Positions 1 to 9,671 are shown, counted from the first letter of the stretch. The stretch: DNA of 9,884 nt from Candidatus Auribacterota bacterium (GCA_023136205.1 JAGLRQ010000134.1:1-9884); one strand, 5' to 3'. Notes: generated by a model from the sequence alone, not told the origin. Translations and numbers: made by a program.

Positions 1-584
1 AGTATGCAATCAAATAACTGTCTTCTTCTGTAGAGTAACACGGTATAGATAATACCGGTTGCGATTGCCGCAGGCCATTCCCATAAATTATGACCCAGTG
101 TGAAGAGAATCACGCTTCCTATGAGCGAAAACATGGTAAATTTGCCGACAGGAACAGAATCAAAATTGTCAGGGTTTATAAGCAGCCTTATTACAAATGA
201 GCGCATAAAAAGTTCCTCGAAGAGCGGGACAACAAGAACAGCCCCGCCAAGGCGGAAAAATATTAAGAAAGCTGTTGTAAAGGGAGTATTCCTGATGGGG
301 TTATATCCTGTATCTGGTGGATGAAACATTTTGAAAGGCATATGTTCTGTAAGGCCTATCCATATAAAGAAAACTATAATTCCTGTTATGCAGGCTATCG
401 GGGAAAACGAGAATTTTATCTCTTTATAAATCTTCCGCCAGTAGAGGAGAAGAATAAATGTTACAGTTGTTTTAAACGGATAGGTTAAATAAGCATAGTC
501 CCCGAAAAATTGTGATGTTGACCCGATTAAAATAAATATGAAGTACGGGGCAATATATGGGATAATGGCTTTCCAATTTTTCAT
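1..584 (-). CDS. CPBP-family intramembrane glutamic endopeptidase (CAAX-protease-like), partial; C-terminus runs off the window start
   Basis: Absent from the ORF track because it has no in-window stop. My translation of the minus strand from the ATG (complement of 582-584) is open for 194 codons to position 1: MKNWKAIIPYIAPYFIFILIG...VVPLFEELFMRSFVIRLL...VILFTLGHNLWEWPAAIATGIIY... It has several hydrophobic helices plus the two CPBP hallmarks: EExxxR (EELFMR, complement of about 201-218) and FxxxH (FTLGH). No clear SD lies upstream, so the start is provisional (an in-frame TTG lies at complement of 618-620). Confidence 0.75.
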   Translation of the reverse strand, partial: MKNWKAIIPYIAPYFIFILIGSTSQFFGDYAYLTYPFKTTVTFILLLYWRKIYKEIKFSFSPIACITGIIVFFIWIGLTEHMPFKMFHPPDTGYNPIRNTPFTTAFLIFFRLGGAVLVVPLFEELFMRSFVIRLLINPDNFDSVPVGKFTMFSLIGSVILFTLGHNLWEWPAAIATGIIYTVLLYRRRQLFDCI

Positions 585-651
585 TAAGAAAAAGATAGCA
601 GAAAAACAGCTAAAAATCAAAAAAGATAAAATAATATTCTGCAGGATTGTT

Positions 652-2235
652 ATGCTTGATATTCTGATTAAAGGCGCGAGAGTTTTTGACGGGGAGATTT
701 TTCTTGTCGGAGATATATGTGTGGGAGTAAGAGAGGGGAAGATTATCAGCGTTGGGAAAACCTGTGGGAAAGCGAAAAGAGTAATTGATGCCGCGGGGCT
801 TGTTCTGGCACCGGGTTTTATAGATATCCATTCACATTCCGAATTTACGGTTTTATTTAATCCTGAATCTGAGAGTAAAATTTGTCAGGGCGTGACAACT
901 GAACTTGTCGCGAACTGCGGGTTTGGGCCGTGGCCATGTGAAAATGCTGCCGGTAAACGCCTTAAAGAGAGGCTGGAATGTTTCGGACTTAAACTGGAAT
1001 GGAATTCACTTCAGGGGTATTTTGATTTTCTCGCGAAAGTTCGGCCTTCGGTAAATATAGGTGTTTTTATCGGACACGGCAATGTAAGAGCTTCAGTTAT
1101 TGGCTATGAGAACAGGGCTCCCGATGAGAAAGAAATGAAACATATGCGCGGTTTGGTTGAAGGGGGGATGAAACAGGGAGCTTTTGGACTTTCAACCGGC
1201 CTTATGTATCCTCCTGGGGTTTATGCGAAAAAGCCGGAATTGATAGAATGCGCGAAGGCAGCATCTTCTTTTGGGGGGATTTATGTAACTCATATGAGGA
1301 ATGAATCCGGTGACATCATTAATTCAATTCAAGAAGCGCTAAAAATAGGATATGAGGCAAACATAAAAGTACAAATTTCTCATTTGAAAGTAGCGGGAAG
1401 ACAGAACTGGGATAAAATAGACGAGGTCTTTTCTCTTATAGAAGGTGCAAGAAAAAGCGGTATGGATGTTACATGTGACAGATATCCTTATTCCGCCTCT
1501 TTTACGAGCCTTGATATTGTCCTTCCCTCATGGGTATATGAGGGAGGGAATGCTGAAGAGATAAAAAGGTTAAGAAATCCTGAGACCAGGAGAAAACTGG
1601 CTGAGCAGCTTAGAAAAGAAAAAAGTGACGAATATTGGGATAGAGTTAAGATTGCGTCGGTATCCACAGATAAAAACAAACCCTTTGAAGGAAAGTCTGT
1701 TCTGGAAATTGCTAACTTTAAAAATAGCAATCCAGTGGAAGTGTTTTTTGACCTTCTTCTTGAAGAATCTCTTGGTGTTTATGCTATTTTTTTTAATATG
1801 AGTGAAAAAAACCTTTTTAAAATTCTCGGGAAAACCTATTGCATGGTAGGTTCTGACGCAGCATCCAGGGTTGATTATGGTAAGCTTAGGCAATCAATGG
1901 TCCATCCCCGCGCGTACGGAACTTTTCCCCGCGCGGCAGGAAGATTTGTAAGAGATGGTAAATTGAATTTAGAAGACGCGCTATATAAAATGACAGGGCA
2001 GCCATCAAGAAAGCTGAAGCTGAAAGATAGAGGTTTTATCAGGAAAGGATTGGCGGCGGATTTAGTCCTTTTTGATCCCGGCAGCTTGGCAGATACGGCA
2101 ACATTCGATTGTCCTCACAAGTATCCTGGCGGGATAAAGCATGTTATTATTAATGGCACTGTGACTGTCGAAGAAGGTGAGCATACCGGAGCTCGGGCAG
2201 GAACGGTTGTGAAATCAATAAGCAGAAAACAATAA
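652..2235 (+). CDS. N-acyl-D-amino-acid deacylase (D-aminoacylase) family amidohydrolase
   Basis: The track ORF is 538..2235; I trim it to ATG 652 (Met39). Three reasons: 538-584 would overlap the divergent CPBP gene; AGGA at 643-646 sits 5 nt upstream of ATG 652; and the product then starts MLDILIKGARVFDG, a typical N-terminus for this family. Family motifs seen: GFIDIHSHSE (HxH metal site), GIYVTHMRNES, QISHLKVAG, CDRYPY, GSDAAS..VHPRAYGTFPR, ADLVLFDP. Confidence 0.85.
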   Translation: MLDILIKGARVFDGEIFLVGDICVGVREGKIISVGKTCGKAKRVIDAAGLVLAPGFIDIHSHSEFTVLFNPESESKICQGVTTELVANCGFGPWPCENAAGKRLKERLECFGLKLEWNSLQGYFDFLAKVRPSVNIGVFIGHGNVRASVIGYENRAPDEKEMKHMRGLVEGGMKQGAFGLSTGLMYPPGVYAKKPELIECAKAASSFGGIYVTHMRNESGDIINSIQEALKIGYEANIKVQISHLKVAGRQNWDKIDEVFSLIEGARKSGMDVTCDRYPYSASFTSLDIVLPSWVYEGGNAEEIKRLRNPETRRKLAEQLRKEKSDEYWDRVKIASVSTDKNKPFEGKSVLEIANFKNSNPVEVFFDLLLEESLGVYAIFFNMSEKNLFKILGKTYCMVGSDAASRVDYGKLRQSMVHPRAYGTFPRAAGRFVRDGKLNLEDALYKMTGQPSRKLKLKDRGFIRKGLAADLVLFDPGSLADTATFDCPHKYPGGIKHVIINGTVTVEEGEHTGARAGTVVKSISRKQ

Positions 2236-2263
2236 ATAAGTTAAACATAATGGATGTTATTTT

Positions 2264-3766
2264 ATGAAATCAAAAACTTTTATTTTTATTATAATAATTA
2301 ATTTTGTATTTTTAACAGGGTGTGCCCAAAAAAGAACCGATTACAAAACACTGTATTTACGCCTGCCTGAGCAACCGTCGACGCTTGATCCAGCCCTTAC
2401 AGTAGATGTTTATTCCGGAGGGATACTTTCTAAAATCTATTCCACCCTTGTGAAATTTGATGAAAATCTCGCGATTCTTCCCGATGCAGCGGAAAAATGG
2501 GCAGTTTCCCGGGATGGCAGGAACTACGTTTTTTATATTGATGAAAATTTAAGGTTTAGTGATGGAACATCTGTTACTTCGCGTGATGTCAAAAAGTCTT
2601 TCCAGAGAATACTGTCTCCTGGTTCCCTCTCATCGAGAAAATGGATGTTTGAGAATGTCAGGGGAGCAGTAGCTTTTATGGACGGGAGGGAAAAGGATGT
2701 AAGCGGGTTTAAAATTATTGGTGAAAAAACCTTAGGGATAGAATTGATAAAACCTTTTGCCCCTTTTTTAGGCCTTCTTGCTATGCCTAATGCCGCTATT
2801 GTAAAAGAAGGCGTCAATAGTCTTCTGGGGTCGGGGGCTTTTAAACTGGAAAAATGGAAAAGAGGAGAGAAAATACTGCTGTCAAAAAACAGGGAGTATT
2901 TAAAGGGAAACTCTTTTCTTGAGAACATATGCTATCGTATTATACCTCAGGATTTTACAGCGCTTTCTGAATTCAAACAGGGGAATTTGGATATTTTGGG
3001 GCTTTCTAATTCTATGGTTGATTCTTTTAAAGCTGTCGAATACGAAAAAAATGTTTACTCCAAAATAGGGCTTAATATTTATTACATAGGCTTTAATTGT
3101 CAAAGAGAGCCTTTCAATAATATTGCTGTAAGGCGGGCTCTTGTTTCAACAATTGATAAAGAAAGAATAGTAAATACAATCCTTGCCTCGAGGGCTGAAC
3201 CGGCGTTTTCTCCTGTTCCTCCCGTTCTTCTGGATGTGGAGCATTATGAAGTAGATAAAGATGTGGTGTTTCCGAAGGAAAGGGTTCTTAAACTACTTAT
3301 AAATACTAGCGATGAAATGCAGGCAATCGCGGAGGTATGCCAGCATTTCTGGAAGGAAAAAGATGTTAAAGTTGATATTATTCAGAGAGAGTGGAATGGT
3401 TTTAAAGAAGCTTTAAATAACGGCGAATTTGATATGTTTATTCTTTCGTGGTGGGCGGATTATCCTGATGCCGAAAATTTTTTATATCCCGTGTTTTATT
3501 CCGGCAACTGGGGCTCAAAGGGAAACAGAGCCAGGTACTCAAACAAAAATTTTGATAAAATTATTTTAGAGGCTCGCTCAGAGCTGGATTTGAACAAAAG
3601 AGAAAATTTATACAGACAGGCTGTGAAAATTGTTGTAAGAGACTGTCCTTGGGCTTTTCTTTGGCATAAAAAGGATTATTCTGTTATTCAACCGTGGGTA
3701 GTAAATTTTAAAATTTATCCATTGTATTATTCTGACAAGGGTGTGGATGTAAAGCTGGAGTACTAG
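2264..3766 (+). CDS. ABC transporter substrate-binding lipoprotein, family 5 (peptide/nickel, DppA/OppA-like)
   Basis: 500-aa ORF with a signal peptide and lipobox (FVFLTGC, Cys20). Family-5 SBP-like features: STLDPALT near the N-terminus, YYIGFNC, SWWADYPDAENFLYPVF. It is followed directly by two permease genes. Confidence 0.85.
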   Translation: MKSKTFIFIIIINFVFLTGCAQKRTDYKTLYLRLPEQPSTLDPALTVDVYSGGILSKIYSTLVKFDENLAILPDAAEKWAVSRDGRNYVFYIDENLRFSDGTSVTSRDVKKSFQRILSPGSLSSRKWMFENVRGAVAFMDGREKDVSGFKIIGEKTLGIELIKPFAPFLGLLAMPNAAIVKEGVNSLLGSGAFKLEKWKRGEKILLSKNREYLKGNSFLENICYRIIPQDFTALSEFKQGNLDILGLSNSMVDSFKAVEYEKNVYSKIGLNIYYIGFNCQREPFNNIAVRRALVSTIDKERIVNTILASRAEPAFSPVPPVLLDVEHYEVDKDVVFPKERVLKLLINTSDEMQAIAEVCQHFWKEKDVKVDIIQREWNGFKEALNNGEFDMFILSWWADYPDAENFLYPVFYSGNWGSKGNRARYSNKNFDKIILEARSELDLNKRENLYRQAVKIVVRDCPWAFLWHKKDYSVIQPWVVNFKIYPLYYSDKGVDVKLEY

Positions 3767-4701
3767 TGAATAAACAAAAAGTCTTTGTGATAAAAAGATG
3801 TCTTCTTGCCATACCCACCATAATTGGTGTTGTAGTCCTTATTTTTGTTCTTACGCGGTTTGTTCCTGGAGACCCTGTTAATAGTTTTGTCGGTAGAAGA
3901 GCTGATGCCCGAATAATTGAAAAGGTAAGAGAAGAATTCGGACTTGATAAACCTTTTTTTGTGCAGTTCTTTTATTATGTTAAATCTCTTGCCAGGGGCG
4001 ATATGGGATATTCCTATGTATCGGGACAGCCGGTGAGTAGTATGATTGCTAAAAGATTCCCGAATACACTCAAACTTGCCTGTACAGCTATGGTACTTGC
4101 GGTTTTGTCAGGGATTGCCATGGGCTTTTTATCTGTTCTAAAACCCGGAGGCTTTATTGATAGAGCCTGTATGTTTCTTTCTGTTTCAGGAATATCAATT
4201 CCGGTTTTCTGGTTTGGACTCATACTTATAATTGTTTTTTCAAATATGCTCGGATGGTTTCCGGCCTCAGGGATGGGGGGCCCCTCTTATATTATTCTTC
4301 CCGCCCTGACACTCGCGACGCGCTCTTCCGCTTATATAGCTAGGATAACCAGATCCAGTGTTTTAGAAGTCCTTGGGGAAAATTTTGTTGTTACCGCAAG
4401 GGCAAAAGGATTAAGCCGGACAAAAGTTTTAATGAAGCACGTTCTTAAAAATGCGCTTATTCCTGTAGTAACCTTAATAGGAATTGATCTTGGGAGTTAC
4501 CTGAACGGTTCTGTGCTGACAGAATCTATTTTTGGTTGGAATGGCATAGGCAATCTTGCTTTAAATGGAATAATGAACAGGGATTACCCTGTAATAATGG
4601 GGACGGTTCTTTTTGGATCGGTAATTTTTATTTTCGCTAATATTCTCGTGGATGTTTCATATTCGATTTTCAATCCGAGGATAAGCTATGAGAGAAAATA
4701 A
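3766..4701 (+). CDS. ABC transporter permease, DppB/OppB-type
   Basis: The GTG start overlaps the SBP stop by 1 nt (TAGTG), with GGAG (3757-3760) 5 nt upstream. The N-terminus RCLLAIPTIIGVVVLIFVLTRFVPGDP and the EAA-type loop TARAKGLSRTKVLMKHVLKNALIP are typical of this permease class. Multiple TM helices. Confidence 0.88.
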   Translation: MNKQKVFVIKRCLLAIPTIIGVVVLIFVLTRFVPGDPVNSFVGRRADARIIEKVREEFGLDKPFFVQFFYYVKSLARGDMGYSYVSGQPVSSMIAKRFPNTLKLACTAMVLAVLSGIAMGFLSVLKPGGFIDRACMFLSVSGISIPVFWFGLILIIVFSNMLGWFPASGMGGPSYIILPALTLATRSSAYIARITRSSVLEVLGENFVVTARAKGLSRTKVLMKHVLKNALIPVVTLIGIDLGSYLNGSVLTESIFGWNGIGNLALNGIMNRDYPVIMGTVLFGSVIFIFANILVDVSYSIFNPRISYERK

Positions 4702-4752
4702 TTACGAAAAAACTAATTCTATCTGTGTCACCAAAACAGGTTTTTAGCTCTT

Positions 4753-5568
4753 ATGAATATAATTAAACAGCACAAATCAGTTAAAATTATAGCAGGCATA
4801 CTTGCTGCCATATTTTTATCCGCGGCATTTGCTCCTTTGATTACCCCGCATGATCCTGTTCACATCAACCTTGATGATGTGAAACAGCCTCCCTCTTTGA
4901 AATACCCTTTTGGAACTGATACAAAAGGGAGATGTGTTTTTAGCAGGGTTGTTTATGGCGCAAGGGTGTCTCTTCTTGTAGGACTTACAGCAACAGTCTG
5001 TGCTTTTTTCTTTGGAGTATTTTTGGGGTCTGTTGCCGGATATTTCGGGGGATTAATTGATAAAATAGTAACTTTTCTTGTTGATATTACCCTTTCTGTT
5101 CCAGGCCTTCTCCTGGCAATTGCTATAACGGTGGTATTTGAACCTGGCATTGTTACGGTGCTTATAGCATTGTGTACTATAGGCTGGGCAAGTTTTGCCC
5201 GTCTTGCCCGCTCAAGCATCATATCCATAAAAGAAAAAGATTTTGTAGTGTCGGCGATTGCGATGGGCAGTTCAAGAAGGAGGGTCCTGATAAGGCACCT
5301 TATACCCAATATAATTCCCCTGATGCTTGTCGCGGCAACTCTCAGGATTGGAGGATTTATCCTCGGGGAAGCTTCATTGTCTTTTCTCGGACTGGGTGTG
5401 CGTCCGCCCCAACCTACATGGGGAGGGATGATTTCTTCAAGTGTAAACTATATCCAGTCTGCCCCCTGGATAGCAATATTTCCGGGTGTTGCTATTGCAA
5501 TTACGATTTTGTGCTTTAATTTGCTGGGGGATATTGTGAGAGACTATTGTGACCCTAAGATGAAGTAA
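4753..5568 (+). CDS. ABC transporter permease, DppC/OppC-type
   Basis: N-terminal AAFAPLITPHDP and the EAA-type loop SAIAMGSSRRRVLIRHLIPNIIP are typical of the second permease of Dpp/Opp-type importers. Multiple TM helices. Confidence 0.88.
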   Translation: MNIIKQHKSVKIIAGILAAIFLSAAFAPLITPHDPVHINLDDVKQPPSLKYPFGTDTKGRCVFSRVVYGARVSLLVGLTATVCAFFFGVFLGSVAGYFGGLIDKIVTFLVDITLSVPGLLLAIAITVVFEPGIVTVLIALCTIGWASFARLARSSIISIKEKDFVVSAIAMGSSRRRVLIRHLIPNIIPLMLVAATLRIGGFILGEASLSFLGLGVRPPQPTWGGMISSSVNYIQSAPWIAIFPGVAIAITILCFNLLGDIVRDYCDPKMK

Positions 5569-5653
5569 AAAGCCGGAAATGCCCGCATCTGCGGCGTTAT
5601 TGCTCCCTCAGAAATCCTCGATGTACTATAAAGTACGCCTGCGTCATTCTTCG

Positions 5654-5692
5654 GTCGCAATGCCTTGCATATACAGGCATTTGCGGCTTTTT
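5654..5692 (+). terminator. Rho-independent terminator candidate for the deacylase/ABC cluster
   Basis: The stem GGTCGCAATGCCT (5654-5665) pairs with AGGCATT(T)GCGGC (5675-5687). That is about 12 bp with one bulged T and one G-U pair. The loop is 9 nt (TGCATATAC) and is followed immediately by TTTTT (5688-5692), with a second TTTTT at 5696-5700. Confidence 0.6.
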
Positions 5693-5848
5693 GGATTTTT
5701 CTGGGATAACACTTTTTTGCAATCTCTGCATCACAAACCCGATACATCCCAAGCACATACAACATCACTTTACTACAGCTAACATCAGTTATCACCACAC
5801 ATAAAGTAACGTTTTTTGCTCGATTATGTGGTGGCGCTAAAGAAAATG

Positions 5849-5896
5849 GGGAAAGTCCCAAGCAAGCGAAGCGAGCGCGTGGACTGTCCCTTTTTT
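5849..5896. terminator. Hairpin plus T-run; possible bidirectional terminator
   Basis: GGGAAAGTCC (5849-5858) pairs with GGACTGTCCC (5881-5890), 10 bp with one A/G mismatch. TTTTTT (5891-5896) follows on the plus strand and ATTTTCT follows on the minus strand. The 22-nt loop is unusually large, which lowers confidence. Confidence 0.4.
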
Positions 5897-5901
5897 CTTG
5901 A

Positions 5902-6120
5902 ACGGAGTTAACACTATATGGACCTTTAGTATTTATAAGCTCTTATATCCAAAACCAAGTTAGAATACTCCACGAAACTGAAAAGGCTGTTTTGGTTGAA
6001 AATGTAGAAAAGATCTGGATTCCAAAATCCCAAATACAAAAGATAAGGTTGGGGAATAATATTTTTGAGGTTTATGTTAGAAAAGGGATGTTTAGGTGGT
6101 GGGATAGTGTGTCGCTGTAA
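5902..6120 (+). pseudogene. Degenerate or frameshifted small ORF with a phage/plasmid-like small-protein motif
   Basis: The frame is open for 72 codons after TGA 5899-5901 and ends at TAA 6118-6120: TELTLYGPLVFISSYIQNQVRILHETEKAVLVENVEKIWIPKSQIQKIRLGNNIFEVYVRKGMFRWWDSVSL. It has no canonical start apart from TTG 5992 and a late ATG. An ATG at 5918, with GGAG (5904-5907) 10 nt upstream, is out of frame by one base and stops after 3 codons (ATG GAC CTT TAG). That pattern fits a frameshifted gene or a sequencing error. Confidence 0.35.
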
Positions 6121-6134
6121 CTTTTAAAATGGCC

Positions 6135-6365
6135 CTATATTTTTTTTGCAAATTTTTTCTTTGCTTCTCTCCTGACTATGTTAAGCTCCTTCTTGAGACG
6201 ATTAACTTGTTCCTCGATTTCTCCCTCACAACAACAGTCTGGTGTTAAAAATATGTTGCCCTCTTTATCTCTTGTATGAGTCTTTACATAAATTTTCGCA
6301 GCATTGCAATCAAGAAGCGCGCCTTTTGAAGGTTTATGAAACATTAACTCGATTGAATAGGTCAT
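6135..6365 (-). CDS. Small hypothetical protein (76 aa) with a CCC triplet and a basic helical tail
   Basis: A consensus SD precedes the start: complement of 6371-6376 is AGGAGG, 5 nt upstream of the ATG (complement of 6363-6365). The composition looks protein-like: a predicted beta-rich N-terminal half, then EGEIEEQVNRLKKELNIVRREAKKKFAKKI (amphipathic, basic helix). Cysteines are C20 and C44-C45-C46 (complement of 6228-6236). Confidence 0.7.
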   Translation of the reverse strand: MTYSIELMFHKPSKGALLDCNAAKIYVKTHTRDKEGNIFLTPDCCCEGEIEEQVNRLKKELNIVRREAKKKFAKKI

Positions 6366-6707
6366 TGTTACCTCCTAATTTTATGTTCGTATAAGTTCTC
6401 ACCAAAAATTCACAGCTTCACTTTTTTATAACTAATTTTCGAACCAAGCAATAAAAAAGGCCCTAAGTTTACAGAACATACTCCTGTAAAATCAGCGCCT
6501 ATCGCCGGCATCCTGATTAAAAATAGTTTATCCACCAAAAAACTAAAGAAATTATTGCACATAAATTTCTTTTTGTCAATAGGAGTTTTTATTTTTTTCG
6601 ACGACAAAATCCTATAATTATTCATTCGTTATGAAAAAAAGTACCAATAATTCTAATACAATATAAGCTCTTAACGGGATTCAACTTACAATTTTTTAGA
6701 GCGTTAT

Positions 6708-6736
6708 CTGAAAAATTATCATAAGCAATCTATAAT
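6708..6736 (+). promoter_or_regulatory. Sigma-70-like promoter candidate for the 6850 gene
   Basis: CTGAAA (6708-6713, 4/6 match to TTGACA), a 17-nt spacer, then a perfect TATAAT (6731-6736). It lies about 115 nt upstream of ATG 6850. This is a pattern match only, in AT-rich DNA. Confidence 0.3.
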
Positions 6737-6849
6737 GAGAAAGGGGCGCAAGCTTATGGGTTGGGTTTCGAGGAAAGTCGCTGGTGATAAAAGCTGTTGA
6801 AGAAAACCCCAGATTATTTTATCATGAATAAAAATCGAGGGTAGCTCCG

Positions 6850-7950
6850 ATGTCAGAAGAAAAAAACAACGTCAAAGTACTTTTTTCCATTAAAAAAATA
6901 TGTAACTATCTGTTCATCCTTATTGATTGGGTTATAGAAAAGCGCAAATTTTTCTTTATCCTCATCTCAATTCTATTTTTAATTCTGTCCTATATGTTTG
7001 TACTTCAATATTCCTATTCTAATAGAAGCTTGGGTTTTCTATTTGCAACTTTATTACCTATTATATACCTTTTTTATTTTGCAATCAAAAAAGAAAGAGC
7101 AATATCAAGTGTAGAAGGGGTTCTTATACTTTTTTTAACAATTTTAATAGGGGTTGGACCCACATATCTAAAAGGAGAAACTAAAGCTTGGAACGAGCTA
7201 ATAAAAAGTAAAATTAAACGGATGAGTGAAGGAGGCGCTGGGAAAAAAGGTATTTATGGTATTTTTGACACAGATTCTGCGGCAACACCAGGGATTATGG
7301 TGGGAACAATCACCCCAAAGATAGACAAAGAAGCAGACTCTAAAACTAATATAGAAATAACAGAAAGTGTTATACAGTCAATAGTATTACAGGAAGCAAC
7401 AAACAATCTTATTAGAAACGGCAATTTTCAAATTCCTTTAGCGAATAACTTAAGTCACTGGGGTCATGGATACTACTCGGATAGAATAAGGAAACAATAT
7501 CCGGAAACTAGTATAATTTGGATTAATTTTTTAAACGCAGGCATAAATATTTCAAGAGAAGAAACAGAAATTGGAAATGCTCTTAAAATAGTCCGTAAAT
7601 CTCCAAGGGAAGACCATGTAGTTGGAATAATGGAACAATCCATAAAAGTTGTCCCAGGGGAATACAATCTTTCATTTATGGCAAAGGCAAAAGATTTAGA
7701 AGAACGTGCCTTACAAATTCGCACAACAAATGACTGGAGAAGAACTCAGACAAATGGATATGTAAGAGGATATGATTTTGAAGCAACCGGAACTTTTGGA
7801 TGGCAGTCTTTCTTTGAAAATCTCACAATTGCTGAATCTGGAGAGATAACTTTCACCATAGTATCTACGGGAAAAGGAACTTTATATTTAAGAGATATCT
7901 CTCTTATTAAAATTTCTGACCTAGTTGTAGAAAACGATAGTTCAGAATAA
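6850..7950 (+). CDS. Membrane-anchored protein with a C-terminal CBM_4_9-like / galactose-binding-like beta-sandwich domain
   Basis: GAGGG lies 8-12 nt upstream of the ATG. Three to four hydrophobic helices fall within aa 34-105 (FFFILISILFLILSYMFVL, LGFLFATLLPIIYLFYFAI, VEGVLILFLTILIGVGPTYL). A linker follows, then, from aa 185 (nt 7402), NLIRNGNFQIPL..LSHWG...VVPGEYNLSFMAKA...GWQSFFENLTI...GTLYLRDISLI. That is the N-x-hydrophobic-x-NG-x-F ... W ... G-x-Y-x-hydrophobic-S-F ... hydrophobic-x-hydrophobic-D-D/x-hydrophobic-S-hydrophobic pattern I associate with CBM4/9-type jelly rolls. Confidence 0.65.
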   Translation: MSEEKNNVKVLFSIKKICNYLFILIDWVIEKRKFFFILISILFLILSYMFVLQYSYSNRSLGFLFATLLPIIYLFYFAIKKERAISSVEGVLILFLTILIGVGPTYLKGETKAWNELIKSKIKRMSEGGAGKKGIYGIFDTDSAATPGIMVGTITPKIDKEADSKTNIEITESVIQSIVLQEATNNLIRNGNFQIPLANNLSHWGHGYYSDRIRKQYPETSIIWINFLNAGINISREETEIGNALKIVRKSPREDHVVGIMEQSIKVVPGEYNLSFMAKAKDLEERALQIRTTNDWRRTQTNGYVRGYDFEATGTFGWQSFFENLTIAESGEITFTIVSTGKGTLYLRDISLIKISDLVVENDSSE

Positions 7951-7971: not shown

Positions 7972-7995
7972 GAAAAGGGGTCTGGCCCCCTTTTC
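7972..7995. terminator. Short A-tract/T-tract hairpin; weak, possibly bidirectional terminator or attenuator
   Basis: GAAAAGGGG (7972-7980) pairs perfectly with CCCCTTTTC (7987-7995) across a 6-nt loop (TCTGGC). The GC core is only 4 bp and the U-run lies within the 3-prime arm, so some read-through into 8028 is likely. Confidence 0.45.
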
Positions 7996-8027: not shown

Positions 8028-8837
8028 ATGGAAAAGCCCAAGTTAGATATAATTGGTGATTGGTCAGAATATAAACTGCAAATTTTGAAGAAGTATGCAG
8101 AAGCTTACGTTAAAATTGTTAAATCACGCTTTAAGTATATATATATAGATGCGTTTGCGGGTGCTGGGATGCATATATCAAAGACAACGGGAGATATTGT
8201 GTCGGGTAGCCCTCTAAATGCGCTGAATATTGAATTTCCGTTCGATGAATATCATTTTATTGATTTGGATGGAGTTAAAGTAGAACTATTGAAAGATTTA
8301 AGCAAAGATAAGTCTAGTGTGTATATTTATCAAGGTGATTGTAATGAGATTTTACTGGATAAAGTATTTCCAAGAGTAAAATATGAAGATTATCGGAGGG
8401 GTTTGTGCCTGCTAGACCCTTATGGGTTACACTTAAATTGGAGCGTTATAAAAAAAGCTGGTGAGATGAAGTCAGTAGAAATATTTTTAAACTTTCCAAT
8501 TATGGATATAAATATGAATGCGATAAAACGGAATCCTGAGAAAGTTACTTCTGAGCAGGCTATGAGAATGACTAGATATTGGGGAGATGAAAGTTGGAAA
8601 GATGTTGCGTATTCTAGCAATGGAATGCTTTTTGAAGATATGAAGGGGAAAACGGATAATGAGACATTGGCAGAGGCTTTTAGAAAGAGATTGATCAATG
8701 ATGCAGGATTTAAAATTGTCCCTAAGCCAATTGCGCTGAAAAACACAACAGGTGCTACCCTATATTATTTGTATTTTGCATCACAGGCTAATGTCGCAGG
8801 TAAAATTGTTGGAGACATTTTTAAAAGTCACAATTAA
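8028..8837 (+). CDS. tcmP: TcmP-like protein (three-Cys-motif partner protein family) with a Rossmann-fold methyltransferase-like motif order
   Basis: The N-terminus DWSEYKLQILKKYAEAYVKIV...YIYIDAFAGAGMH......SGSPLNAL matches my memory of the TcmP family signature (W..K...L..Y...... hydrophobic-YIDxFAGxG ... GSPhydrophobic-xAL). The family is defined by its pairing with a three-Cys protein, and such a protein follows here. MTase-like motifs appear in order: motif I DAFAGAG (from nt 8148), an acidic strand end HFIDLD, GDCNEIL, and a motif IV-like LLDPYG (D130 at nt 8415). GGGAG lies 12 nt upstream of the ATG. Confidence 0.7.
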   Translation: MEKPKLDIIGDWSEYKLQILKKYAEAYVKIVKSRFKYIYIDAFAGAGMHISKTTGDIVSGSPLNALNIEFPFDEYHFIDLDGVKVELLKDLSKDKSSVYIYQGDCNEILLDKVFPRVKYEDYRRGLCLLDPYGLHLNWSVIKKAGEMKSVEIFLNFPIMDINMNAIKRNPEKVTSEQAMRMTRYWGDESWKDVAYSSNGMLFEDMKGKTDNETLAEAFRKRLINDAGFKIVPKPIALKNTTGATLYYLYFASQANVAGKIVGDIFKSHN

Positions 8838-9671
8838 ATGACAATGAAAACCATAGCAAAAAATAATTTTGATAATAGTAAAACAAATTGTGTTTTTGGT
8901 ACATACGAATGGGCTAATGAAACAGTTAATATTATAGATGGCTGTAAGCATGATTGTAAATATTGCTATAGCAAAGCAATGGCAATTAGATTTAAGAGAA
9001 AAACACCTGCAAATTGGAAAGAAGAAAAAATCAGGAATAATGGTTCGTTAAACTATTCAAAAAAGGTTGATGGAACTATAATGTTTCCGTCTTCTCATGA
9101 TATTCATCCGGAGCATTTGAGTTATCATATAGATTTTATTGAGAGATTATTAGAGCACGGAAACAGGCTTTTAATAGTTACAAAACCTCATTTTGATTCT
9201 ATAAAAACAATTTGTGAGCAATTTATTGATTATAGAGACAAAATCCTATTTCGATTTACTATTGGCTCTATCAATTCAGATATACTGAAATTTTGGGAGC
9301 CAGGAGCTCCTGATTTCAATGAGAGATTAAAGGTTTTAAAATATGCATTCAATAAAAACTTTCAAACCAGTGTTTCTTGTGAGCCAATGCTGGATAATAA
9401 CATAGTGGGTGTTATTGATGCTGTTTATCCTTTTATTACGGATTCAATATGGTTGGGAAAAGCGAATTATCTAATTAAGAGATTAAAATTTAATAAAGCG
9501 GACGATCATTTAACAATGAAAAAAGCATTGCAATTATTAAATTGGCAGTCAGATGATAATATCCAAGATTTATATGATATATATAAAGATGATGCTAAGA
9601 TCAAGTGGAAAGAAAGTATAAAAAGTATTGTGGGAATAAAAATACCTATTCAAAGCGGATTAGACATATAA
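8838..9671 (+). CDS. Small radical SAM enzyme (three-Cys partner; DUF5131/Gp37-Gp68-like N-terminus, SplB/COG1533-like core)
   Basis: The ATG abuts the tcmP stop (TAAATG at 8835-8840), indicating translational coupling. A canonical CX3CX2C motif, GCKHDCKYCY (Cys36/40/43), lies at nt 8943-8966. Downstream elements resemble photolyase-like radical SAM cores: LLIVTKP, FRFTIGSINSDILKFWEPGAPDFNERLKVLKYAF, TSVSCEPML. An alternative start is Met3 (8844). Confidence 0.75.
   Translation: MTMKTIAKNNFDNSKTNCVFGTYEWANETVNIIDGCKHDCKYCYSKAMAIRFKRKTPANWKEEKIRNNGSLNYSKKVDGTIMFPSSHDIHPEHLSYHIDFIERLLEHGNRLLIVTKPHFDSIKTICEQFIDYRDKILFRFTIGSINSDILKFWEPGAPDFNERLKVLKYAFNKNFQTSVSCEPMLDNNIVGVIDAVYPFITDSIWLGKANYLIKRLKFNKADDHLTMKKALQLLNWQSDDNIQDLYDIYKDDAKIKWKESIKSIVGIKIPIQSGLDI

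Follow-up and report, generated by a model that had tools for sequence, protein, structure and literature searches.

The stretch of DNA analyzed here, hereafter the window, spans 9,884 nucleotides and comes from a metagenome-assembled genome of Candidatus Auribacterota (Aureabacteria). It carries a pair of plus-strand genes: the first (8028..8837) codes for TcmP, a protein of 269 amino acids with a class I methyltransferase fold, identified by TIGR04474, the PADLOC profile PDC-M41A, an AlphaFold2 model and its GenBank record; the second (8838..9671) codes for a protein of 277 amino acids of the radical S-adenosylmethionine (SAM) superfamily, identified from the list of open reading frames (ORFs) and the Pfam profile PF04055. 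The TAA stop of the TcmP gene directly abuts the ATG of the radical SAM gene; an alternative start at the second ATG (8844), used by gene callers on identical metagenome contigs, would give 275 amino acids. We report here that this radical SAM protein, with its canonical cysteine spacing, is homologous to DUF5131 (PF07505) and stands beside TcmP in the place that DUF5131 takes in most loci with related TcmPs.

The radical SAM protein scores above the gathering threshold of the Pfam Radical_SAM profile PF04055 (36.2 bits against a cut-off of 29.5; residues 30-177). Its residues 23-49, YEWANETVNIIDGCKHDCKYCYSKAMA, include C36-x3-C40-x2-C43 followed by Y44 (codons at 8943..8966, plus strand), which, read from the sequence, form the predicted [4Fe-4S]- and SAM-binding loop. 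Conservation was assessed in two alignments, one of 32 close relatives of the window protein and one of 72 diverse family representatives. In the former, C36, C40, C43 and Y44 are invariant (32/32), and the motifs FG..EWA, PSSHDI.P, V.KPH, FRF.IGS, WE..A, ER, TS.S.EP.LD, W.GK.N and KWK.S.K are kept as well; in the latter, the invariant positions are C36, C40, H87, D88, K116, R163, E182, P183 and G207, and C43 is retained by 90% or more of the sequences. E182 and P183 belong to the strand-5 motif TSVSCEPMLD (9366..9395, plus strand), which both the alignments and hhalign place collinear with 'RF(I/L)S.EPLL' of DUF5131. Two further cysteines, C126 and C181, are not conserved among the 72 diverse representatives, which argues against an auxiliary cluster. 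C181, part of SCEPML, was also considered as a fourth catalytic cysteine and rejected, being conserved in close relatives only and not in the diverse set.

The AlphaFold2 model of the protein (predicted local distance difference test, pLDDT, 88; predicted template modelling score, pTM, 0.85) displays six β/α units and a helical C-terminus, that is, a partial (β/α)6 TIM barrel. Every significant Foldseek match to this model in the PDB is a radical SAM enzyme, at template modelling (TM) scores of 0.45-0.50. These include SkfB, SuiB, spore photoproduct lyase (SPL) and LipA; a close structure is absent, and SPL is not told apart from the other radical SAM enzymes (TM ~0.5). A structure search of BFVD with the model returned generic phage radical SAM proteins only, and a single-sequence search of the PDB gave no relevant match. 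These observations support the view of the window protein as a minimal canonical radical SAM protein with a single cluster and no auxiliary-cluster domain. An earlier note on this DNA, made from the sequence alone, had described the 277-residue ORF, the segment quoted above, its CX3CX2C spacing and a minimal build that leaves no room for an auxiliary cluster, and had singled out several motifs; all of this is borne out, the three cysteines being conserved as stated and the motifs VTKPH, FRFTIGS, WEPGAP, ERL and SCEPML proving to be conserved in the family.

The N-terminal segment of the protein (residues 24-62; 8907..9023, plus strand) is DUF5131-like in its pattern EW..N..GC...C..CY..MA.RF, as indicated by PF07505, PADLOC and hhalign. 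The PF07505 match is confined to these residues and to positions 5-46 of the 243 in the profile, and at 22.6 bits (E 8.4e-5) it lies below the cut-off of 28.9; the PADLOC profiles PDC-M41B and PDC-M30B match residues 23-105, the former weakly (24.5 bits, E 3.7e-6, in a 241-position profile). The Pfam SPL profile PF20903 reaches 15.5 bits against a cut-off of 27 (E 0.008, residues 27-170), the SPL model TIGR04070 reaches 17.5 bits against 400, and NCBIfam yields far-sub-threshold matches only (radical SAM mobile pair protein B, Rv2578c, PA0069 and SPL). Taken together, the Radical_SAM, DUF5131 and SPL Pfam matches indicate a likeness that exceeds chance.

Profile-profile comparison extends the likeness to DUF5131 well into the core. 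DUF5131 sequences were gathered from annotated TcmP neighbours on plasmids and by homologue searches. A shallow hhalign comparison (32 versus 15 sequences) covered the N-terminal 31 columns only, at 62%, and is superseded by a deeper one (142 family versus 78 DUF5131 sequences), which gives a probability of 96.5% (E 7e-10) over 149 columns, aligning window residues 21-187 with DUF5131 residues 5-168; a control with reversed sequences gave 0.6%. The collinear motifs are EW..N..GC / C..CY, PSSHD with NSMSD, VTKPH with LTKR, ERL with RI.HL, and S.EPML with S.EPLL, and the tyrosine after the third cysteine is likewise conserved in both families (Y44 in the window, Y31 in DUF5131). The alignment ends before the GGESG and F.FKQWG motifs, which are invariant in the DUF5131 alignment and absent from both window-family alignments. 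When the diverse family profile was compared with all PDB sequences, SPL was the sole radical SAM match (E 1.1e-5 over 160 residues), the next being HydE (E 0.26). The DUF5131-like N-terminus and the SPL-like remainder that the earlier note had proposed are both recovered by profile methods, the former now with homology across the core.

Viral proteins from IMG/VR combine features of both families. Five of them (L234, 6037-6831; L245, 5866-7023; L251, 5965-7020; L254 and L255, both 5869-7029) match our own DUF5131 hidden Markov model (HMM) best, and three (L234, L254 and L251) are PF07505 members by Pfam, matching positions 1-214 of the 243 in that profile at 119-147 bits. In all five the loop reads GC.H(D/N)CKYCYA, a CX3CX2C arrangement reached by a clean three-residue deletion. 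Hence, the cysteine spacing toggles within DUF5131, and CX6 is not absolute. In addition, L225 (5920-6690) and L244 (5929-6717) exceed the cut-offs of both PF04055 (50 and 35 bits) and PF07505 (40 and 39 bits), and L258 (5929-6723), a close relative of these two, gives the same picture by our own HMMs. A graded series links DUF5131 to the window family. The earlier note had gone further in proposing the window protein itself as a possible bridge between DUF5131 and bona fide radical SAM enzymes: the homology stands and the idea holds in a broad sense, but other proteins are better bridges, and DUF5131 is already a radical SAM subgroup. In RadicalSAM.org, DUF5131 is Megacluster-5-2 (CX6CX2C), beside SPL (5-3) and MJ0683-like proteins (5-1) (PMC9477430); with DUF5131 placed beside SPL in SFLD/RadicalSAM.org, no gap is left to bridge. 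Two side features of the viral proteins may be recorded: L225, L244 and L258 have an N-terminus of the form EWTD.N.N..GC.HNCKYCYAR and a body like that of the window family; L245, L251 and L254 end in a Cys-rich tail of ~90 amino acids (CAECK...FMCKDCF), possibly a zinc ribbon.

The window family is large. A word-indexed search recovered 2023 homologues, the best 120 of which are 55-100% identical to the window protein and 260-300 amino acids long, and JGI gives many of them the annotation "DNA repair photolyase" (COG1533); an exhaustive HMM search found 2751 clusters (50% identity) at E<=1e-3 and 862 at E<=1e-30. PF04055 is matched by 69 of the 72 diverse representatives, PF07505 by 36 (best E 5e-8) and PF20903 by 24 (best E 4e-8), and the last two sets of matches place the family between DUF5131 and SPL-like proteins. 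Its distribution is patchy and mobile, with members in Archaea, many bacterial phyla, plasmids and phages. A scan of IMG/VR yielded 114 viral relatives, although tblastn against the INPHARED phage genomes gave no match. No recurring neighbour of the viral copies was found; where identifiable, their neighbours belong mostly to DNA metabolism: four DNA methyltransferases, DnaB, a replisome organiser, a beta-clamp, HNH nucleases and terminases.

N-terminal extensions are present in 35 of the 150 best family representatives. A ~200-residue N-terminal module with weak ParB helix-turn-helix (HTH) signals is common to 20 of these 35; of 10 members, 4 match PF17762 (best E 2.9e-4), and the top match in the PDB is ParB (E 0.09). 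The ParB-HTH-like fusion members are P0278, P0352, P0373, P0306 and 16 other representatives. Longer fusions, in proteins of up to 1170 amino acids, carry an extra ParB_N and a DnaX-like clamp-loader AAA+ module. Members of 480-580 amino acids were considered as fusions of TcmP to the radical SAM protein, and this was rejected, none of the 35 extensions matching the TcmP HMM.

The first gene of the pair scores 189.9 bits against TIGR04474 (cut-off 53) and 230.8 bits against PADLOC PDC-M41A, and its GenBank entry, MCK4948258.1, is already named TcmP. Residues 39-47, YIDAFAGAG (8142..8168, plus strand), with Y39, D41, F43, G45 and G47 invariant in the TcmP alignment, contain a D.F.G.G pattern that we take, from general knowledge of class I methyltransferases, to be the SAM-binding motif I. 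Residues 130-133, DPYG (8415..8426, plus strand), with D130, P131 and G133 invariant and Y132 kept in at least 90% of that alignment, may represent a variant of the catalytic motif IV, (D/N)PP(Y/F), of amino-methyltransferases, as the RlmJ-like fold suggests. Other conserved motifs are the acidic ID.D, GDCN and LDPYG, the last being one residue shorter than (D/N)PP(Y/F). The best PDB fold for the AlphaFold2 model (pLDDT 91.4) is RlmJ (E 1e-8, TM 0.54-0.57), followed by DUF519 and Trm1; a TcmP profile detected no chain among the PDB sequences.

These structural matches raise the alternative of an RNA-modification pair, in which TcmP would be an rRNA or tRNA amino-methyltransferase like RlmJ, its top match, or Trm1, and the radical SAM protein would modify the same RNA. 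MiaB is among the fold matches of the radical SAM model, and many radical SAM enzymes act on RNA. Housekeeping RNA modifiers are, however, usually inherited vertically, whereas the present family is scattered over Archaea, many bacterial phyla, plasmids and phages; moreover, the ParB and DnaX-like fusions are DNA-associated and the nearest sequence relative is a DNA enzyme, SPL. We therefore consider an RNA-modification pair unlikely.

A genome scan for homologues of the window radical SAM protein gave 80 loci from Cloacimonadota, Bacteroidota, Desulfobacterota, Verrucomicrobiota, Chloroflexota, Actinomycetota and an Aenigmatarchaeote; 10 lie at contig edges, leaving 70 informative loci. TcmP is adjacent in 47 of these 70 (42 upstream, 5 downstream) and not in the other 23. 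The association follows identity to the window protein: an adjacent TcmP accompanies 32 of 35 radical SAM proteins at >=55% identity, 14 of 29 at 45-55%, and one of six at <45%. In nearly all cases the two genes share a strand and either abut or overlap. For the genomic loci without TcmP no conserved neighbour was found, and none of 45 viral family members has an adjacent TcmP. A separate clade of long TcmPs (~370-400 amino acids) also partners the window radical SAM family, sometimes downstream of the radical SAM gene (L005, L012, L013, L019, L022, L024, L028, L037, L039 and L044); one copy of this clade, at L038 4801-5964, has a C-terminal GMT-like winged HTH domain.

The partners of the TcmPs most like that of the window are predominantly DUF5131. 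A metagenome set of 80 loci was assembled whose TcmPs are 52-60% identical to the window TcmP; with six truncated, 74 are readable. In 71 of the 74 the TcmP is accompanied by DUF5131, in 70 cases directly downstream on the same strand. The readable remainder consists of one locus with no partner and two with other three-Cys proteins in the DUF5131 slot: L124 (841-1761), a different CX3CX2C radical SAM protein only 23% identical to that of the window, and L127 (1515-1730, on a truncated contig), with GCSHGCKYPCY, a CX3CX3C spacing. In genomes, the TcmPs of Nitrospira japonica (L092), Acidobacteria (L094, L095) and L096 are 59-61% identical to the window's and all have DUF5131. Pooled, TcmPs of 52-61% identity have DUF5131 downstream in 74 of 78 loci with a readable partner. 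At L093, by contrast, the TcmP is 72% identical to that of the window and the partner belongs to the window radical SAM family. This locus (3183-5653 in GCA_043811795.1) holds the only other pair of a DUF5131-type TcmP with a window-family radical SAM protein, and the pair lies directly downstream of smpB. The smpB region is a classic integration hot-spot.

Neighbour-joining places the TcmPs of the window and of L093 within the DUF5131-partnered clade, and the remaining TcmPs with radical SAM partners form separate, distant clades; at least three TcmP subtypes pair with the window radical SAM family. The nesting of the window TcmP shows that in this lineage a canonical radical SAM protein has replaced DUF5131 in situ beside a DUF5131-type TcmP, and this replacement in turn suggests that the two are functionally interchangeable. 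The identities of the two genes do not run in parallel: between the window and L002 the TcmPs are 23% and the radical SAM proteins 85% identical, and between the window and L093 the figures are 72% and only 56%. That TcmP and the radical SAM protein are mere neighbours, functionally uncoupled, the latter with an unrelated metabolic role, would agree with the absence of TcmP from one third of the genomic loci and from all viral copies. Yet it hardly accounts for the same-strand, abutting or overlapping arrangement in 47 genome loci from distant phyla, for the fact that, of the 74 readable metagenome loci, 70 have the homologous DUF5131 in this slot, or for the several TcmP subtypes that pair with the family; we regard it as highly improbable.

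On plasmids, the coupling is found in the vicinity of defence genes. RefSeq plasmids of Nostoc, Halopiger and Halocatena have TcmP beside other genes annotated "radical SAM protein", so that the pairing of TcmP with canonical radical SAM proteins is already visible in annotation. Plasmid TcmP pairs adjoin McrBC, BREX, DUF262, GIY-YIG, PIN and the Hna helicase, and in PADLOC the combination of TcmP and DUF5131 is the candidate PDC-M41 (also PDC-M30). Plasmids of Burkholderia, Paraburkholderia, Acidovorax and Agrobacterium (L084, L087, L088 and L090) carry three-gene sets of DUF5131, a long TcmP (~423 amino acids) and a short TcmP; these sets adjoin DUF262, GIY-YIG, PIN or the Hna DEAD-box helicase. 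The listing of TcmP pairs as defence candidates would also suit a viperin-like antiviral synthase of small molecules, in which the radical SAM protein turns a free nucleotide into a toxic analogue and TcmP methylates the analogue or a precursor. The architecture is minimal and single-cluster, and viperins are among the weaker fold matches (TM 0.40-0.46). Against this, the sequence shows no likeness specific to viperins, phages themselves carry the family, the ParB/DnaX-like fusions argue for an enzyme bound to a polymer, and a kinase or nucleotide-handling partner is absent; such a synthase is accordingly very unlikely in our view.

In the window itself the TcmP-radical SAM pair lies in a patch of low GC content (0.30-0.35, as against ~0.40 upstream). 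The radical SAM gene is followed by a convergent MscS gene. Upstream of the pair is an orphan ORF of 366 amino acids with N-terminal transmembrane helices (6850-7950, plus strand), and between it and TcmP a terminator-like hairpin with a T-run (7977..7989, plus strand) emerged from a consensus scan; with one such site found and 2.4 expected by chance, the hairpin is weak on its own. In its C-terminal part the 366-residue protein bears a weak likeness (E 5e-4) to the BT4411 hyaluronic-acid-binding family; it falls in a cluster of only two members and accompanies the pair on all identical contigs. Further upstream, at ~5570-6850, the GC content drops from ~0.45 to 0.31 and convincing ORFs are few; on contigs L177-L180 a 76-residue minus-strand ORF (6135-6365) has been annotated as a gene. 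An acquired patch may have its border in this region, but neither a tRNA nor a repeat nor an Rfam element marks it, and the rest of the window likewise contains no tRNA or Rfam element that would signal the edge of an island. Promoter-like sites in the window are not above chance. An ordinary operon occupies 538-5568 (plus strand), with a D-aminoacylase-like amidohydrolase, a family-5 peptide-binding protein and two ATP-binding cassette (ABC) permeases, and appears unrelated to the pair.

We hold it to be, on balance, somewhat probable that a functional minimal radical SAM protein of the DUF5131/SPL clade and an RlmJ-like TcmP together constitute a mobile nucleic-acid modification module, in which the former stands in for DUF5131. 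Having taken that place, the canonical radical SAM protein would most likely do the same job as DUF5131. C36, C40 and C43 would hold a [4Fe-4S] cluster, at which SAM would be cleaved reductively to give a 5'-deoxyadenosyl radical; within a translationally abutting two-gene unit, TcmP would recognize a base, methylate it, or both, and the radical SAM protein would carry out hydrogen abstraction on the target of TcmP. The role of such a module may be defence-associated or epigenetic. The activity of the pair is probably nucleic-acid modification. DNA, to which the earlier note had pointed, is a plausible substrate on circumstantial grounds: the affinity to SPL, the RlmJ-like partner, the ParB/DnaX-like fusions, the DNA-metabolism neighbours of viral copies and the defence neighbours on plasmids point to a nucleic acid, most likely DNA, as the working context, while the similarity of TcmP to RlmJ and Trm1 leaves some room for RNA. 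More tentatively, TcmP and radical SAM proteins of the DUF5131 clade may form a widespread mobile two-enzyme system that lays down an undescribed radical SAM-dependent DNA mark, with an epigenetic, self-marking or anti-phage function, and the phages that carry the radical SAM protein alone may use it as a counter-measure or for self-protection.

Several observations weigh against the nucleic-acid modification module. The 23 genome loci and all 45 viral copies without TcmP imply that the radical SAM protein can act without it. The pair of the window sits between a peptide ABC transporter operon and MscS, with no recognisable defence island. The nearest solved folds of TcmP are RNA rather than DNA methyltransferases, and with DPYG rather than DPPY as its motif IV, methyl transfer by TcmP is uncertain. 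With a best E of 2.9e-4, the ParB-HTH assignment stays below threshold. The PDC entries of PADLOC are candidate systems only (10.1101/2024.01.29.577857), and literature searches on TcmP, DUF5131, PDC-M41 and PDC-M30 found no functional or experimental study.

If such a two-enzyme DNA-marking system exists, the canonical-motif family offers a biochemically tractable entry point to the DUF5131/TcmP world. Experimenters gain a conventional, well-behaved radical SAM protein to purify, and the RlmJ-like partner and ParB/DnaX-like fusions narrow the search for a substrate to nucleic acids. DUF5131 and TcmP number >8000 and >7600 clusters (90% identity), respectively, and are very abundant, mobile and often beside defence genes. 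RadicalSAM.org already groups DUF5131 with SPL among radical SAM proteins, and GenBank already has the name TcmP; the present result refines an existing classification and founds no new one. What it chiefly adds is the exchange of partners in situ and the intermediates between CX3 and CX6 spacing, which bring the function of DUF5131/TcmP within experimental reach and provide genomic evidence that DUF5131 works as a radical SAM enzyme exchangeable with a canonical one.

Among known systems, SPL may be compared first. SplB (PF20903, TIGR04070; PDB 4FHC) shares with the window protein the CX3CX2C loop followed by a tyrosine (SPL Tyr98, window Y44) and the motif FRF.I.S..FEPG...F..RL, and both are single-cluster enzymes. 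The tyrosine and the shared motif, together with SPL being the only PDB sequence match, the JGI label of many members and the many members without TcmP, would favour a stand-alone radical DNA-repair lyase of the SPL/COG1533 kind, to which the adjacency of TcmP is secondary. However, the fourth conserved cysteine of SPL, the H-donor Cys140 (Cys140/141), aligns with Ser85 of the window protein, in the PSSHD motif. In SPL itself the C140S variant is repair-defective, the Cys140 H-donor being essential even against substitution by serine (PMC3467042). The serine at this position indicates that the window protein is not a spore photoproduct lyase. The window protein also scores far below the curated SPL cut-offs of Pfam and TIGRFAM, is ~90 amino acids shorter, is carried by mobile elements and, with its close relatives, is tightly operon-coupled with TcmP; carriage by phages likewise suits modification more than spore-type repair. 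Hence, a repair lyase is quite unlikely, and we retain the view of a TcmP-coupled modification module. The COG1533/Megacluster-5 relatives (MJ0683-like, PA0069 NF033668, Rv2578c NF038135 and DUF1848) show weak matches over the cysteine loop and the core, and share the label 'DNA repair photolyase' that JGI gives to members of the window family; at 20-26 bits against cut-offs of 360-430, these matches set the window family apart as one for which no curated model exists. The NCBIfam model that aligns best over the full length (residues 29-210 against profile 21-202) is that of radical SAM mobile pair protein B (TIGR04470), likewise a mobile, paired radical SAM protein, but its score is 23 bits against a cut-off of 410 and its partner is another radical SAM protein (pair protein A) and not TcmP.

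On the side of TcmP, RlmJ, the 23S rRNA m6A2030 methyltransferase, has in common the class I fold, motif I and a D-P-(P)-Y motif IV; it differs in that no sequence similarity is detectable and in having DPPY where TcmP has DPYG, and TcmP, for its part, is mobile and shares operons with three-Cys proteins. DUF5131 (PF07505) resembles the window radical SAM protein in its three-Cys N-terminus, EW..N..GC...C..CY, and in the collinear core elements S..D, TK, R..L and S.EP.L; the two differ in their cysteine spacing (CX3CX2C in the window, CX6CX2C in DUF5131) and in the C-terminal third, with W.GK.N and KWKESIK in the former and GGESG and FKQWG in the latter. The pairs of TcmP and DUF5131 (PDC-M41), finally, are like the pair in the window in the TcmP subtype, in the order of the genes and in their abutment.

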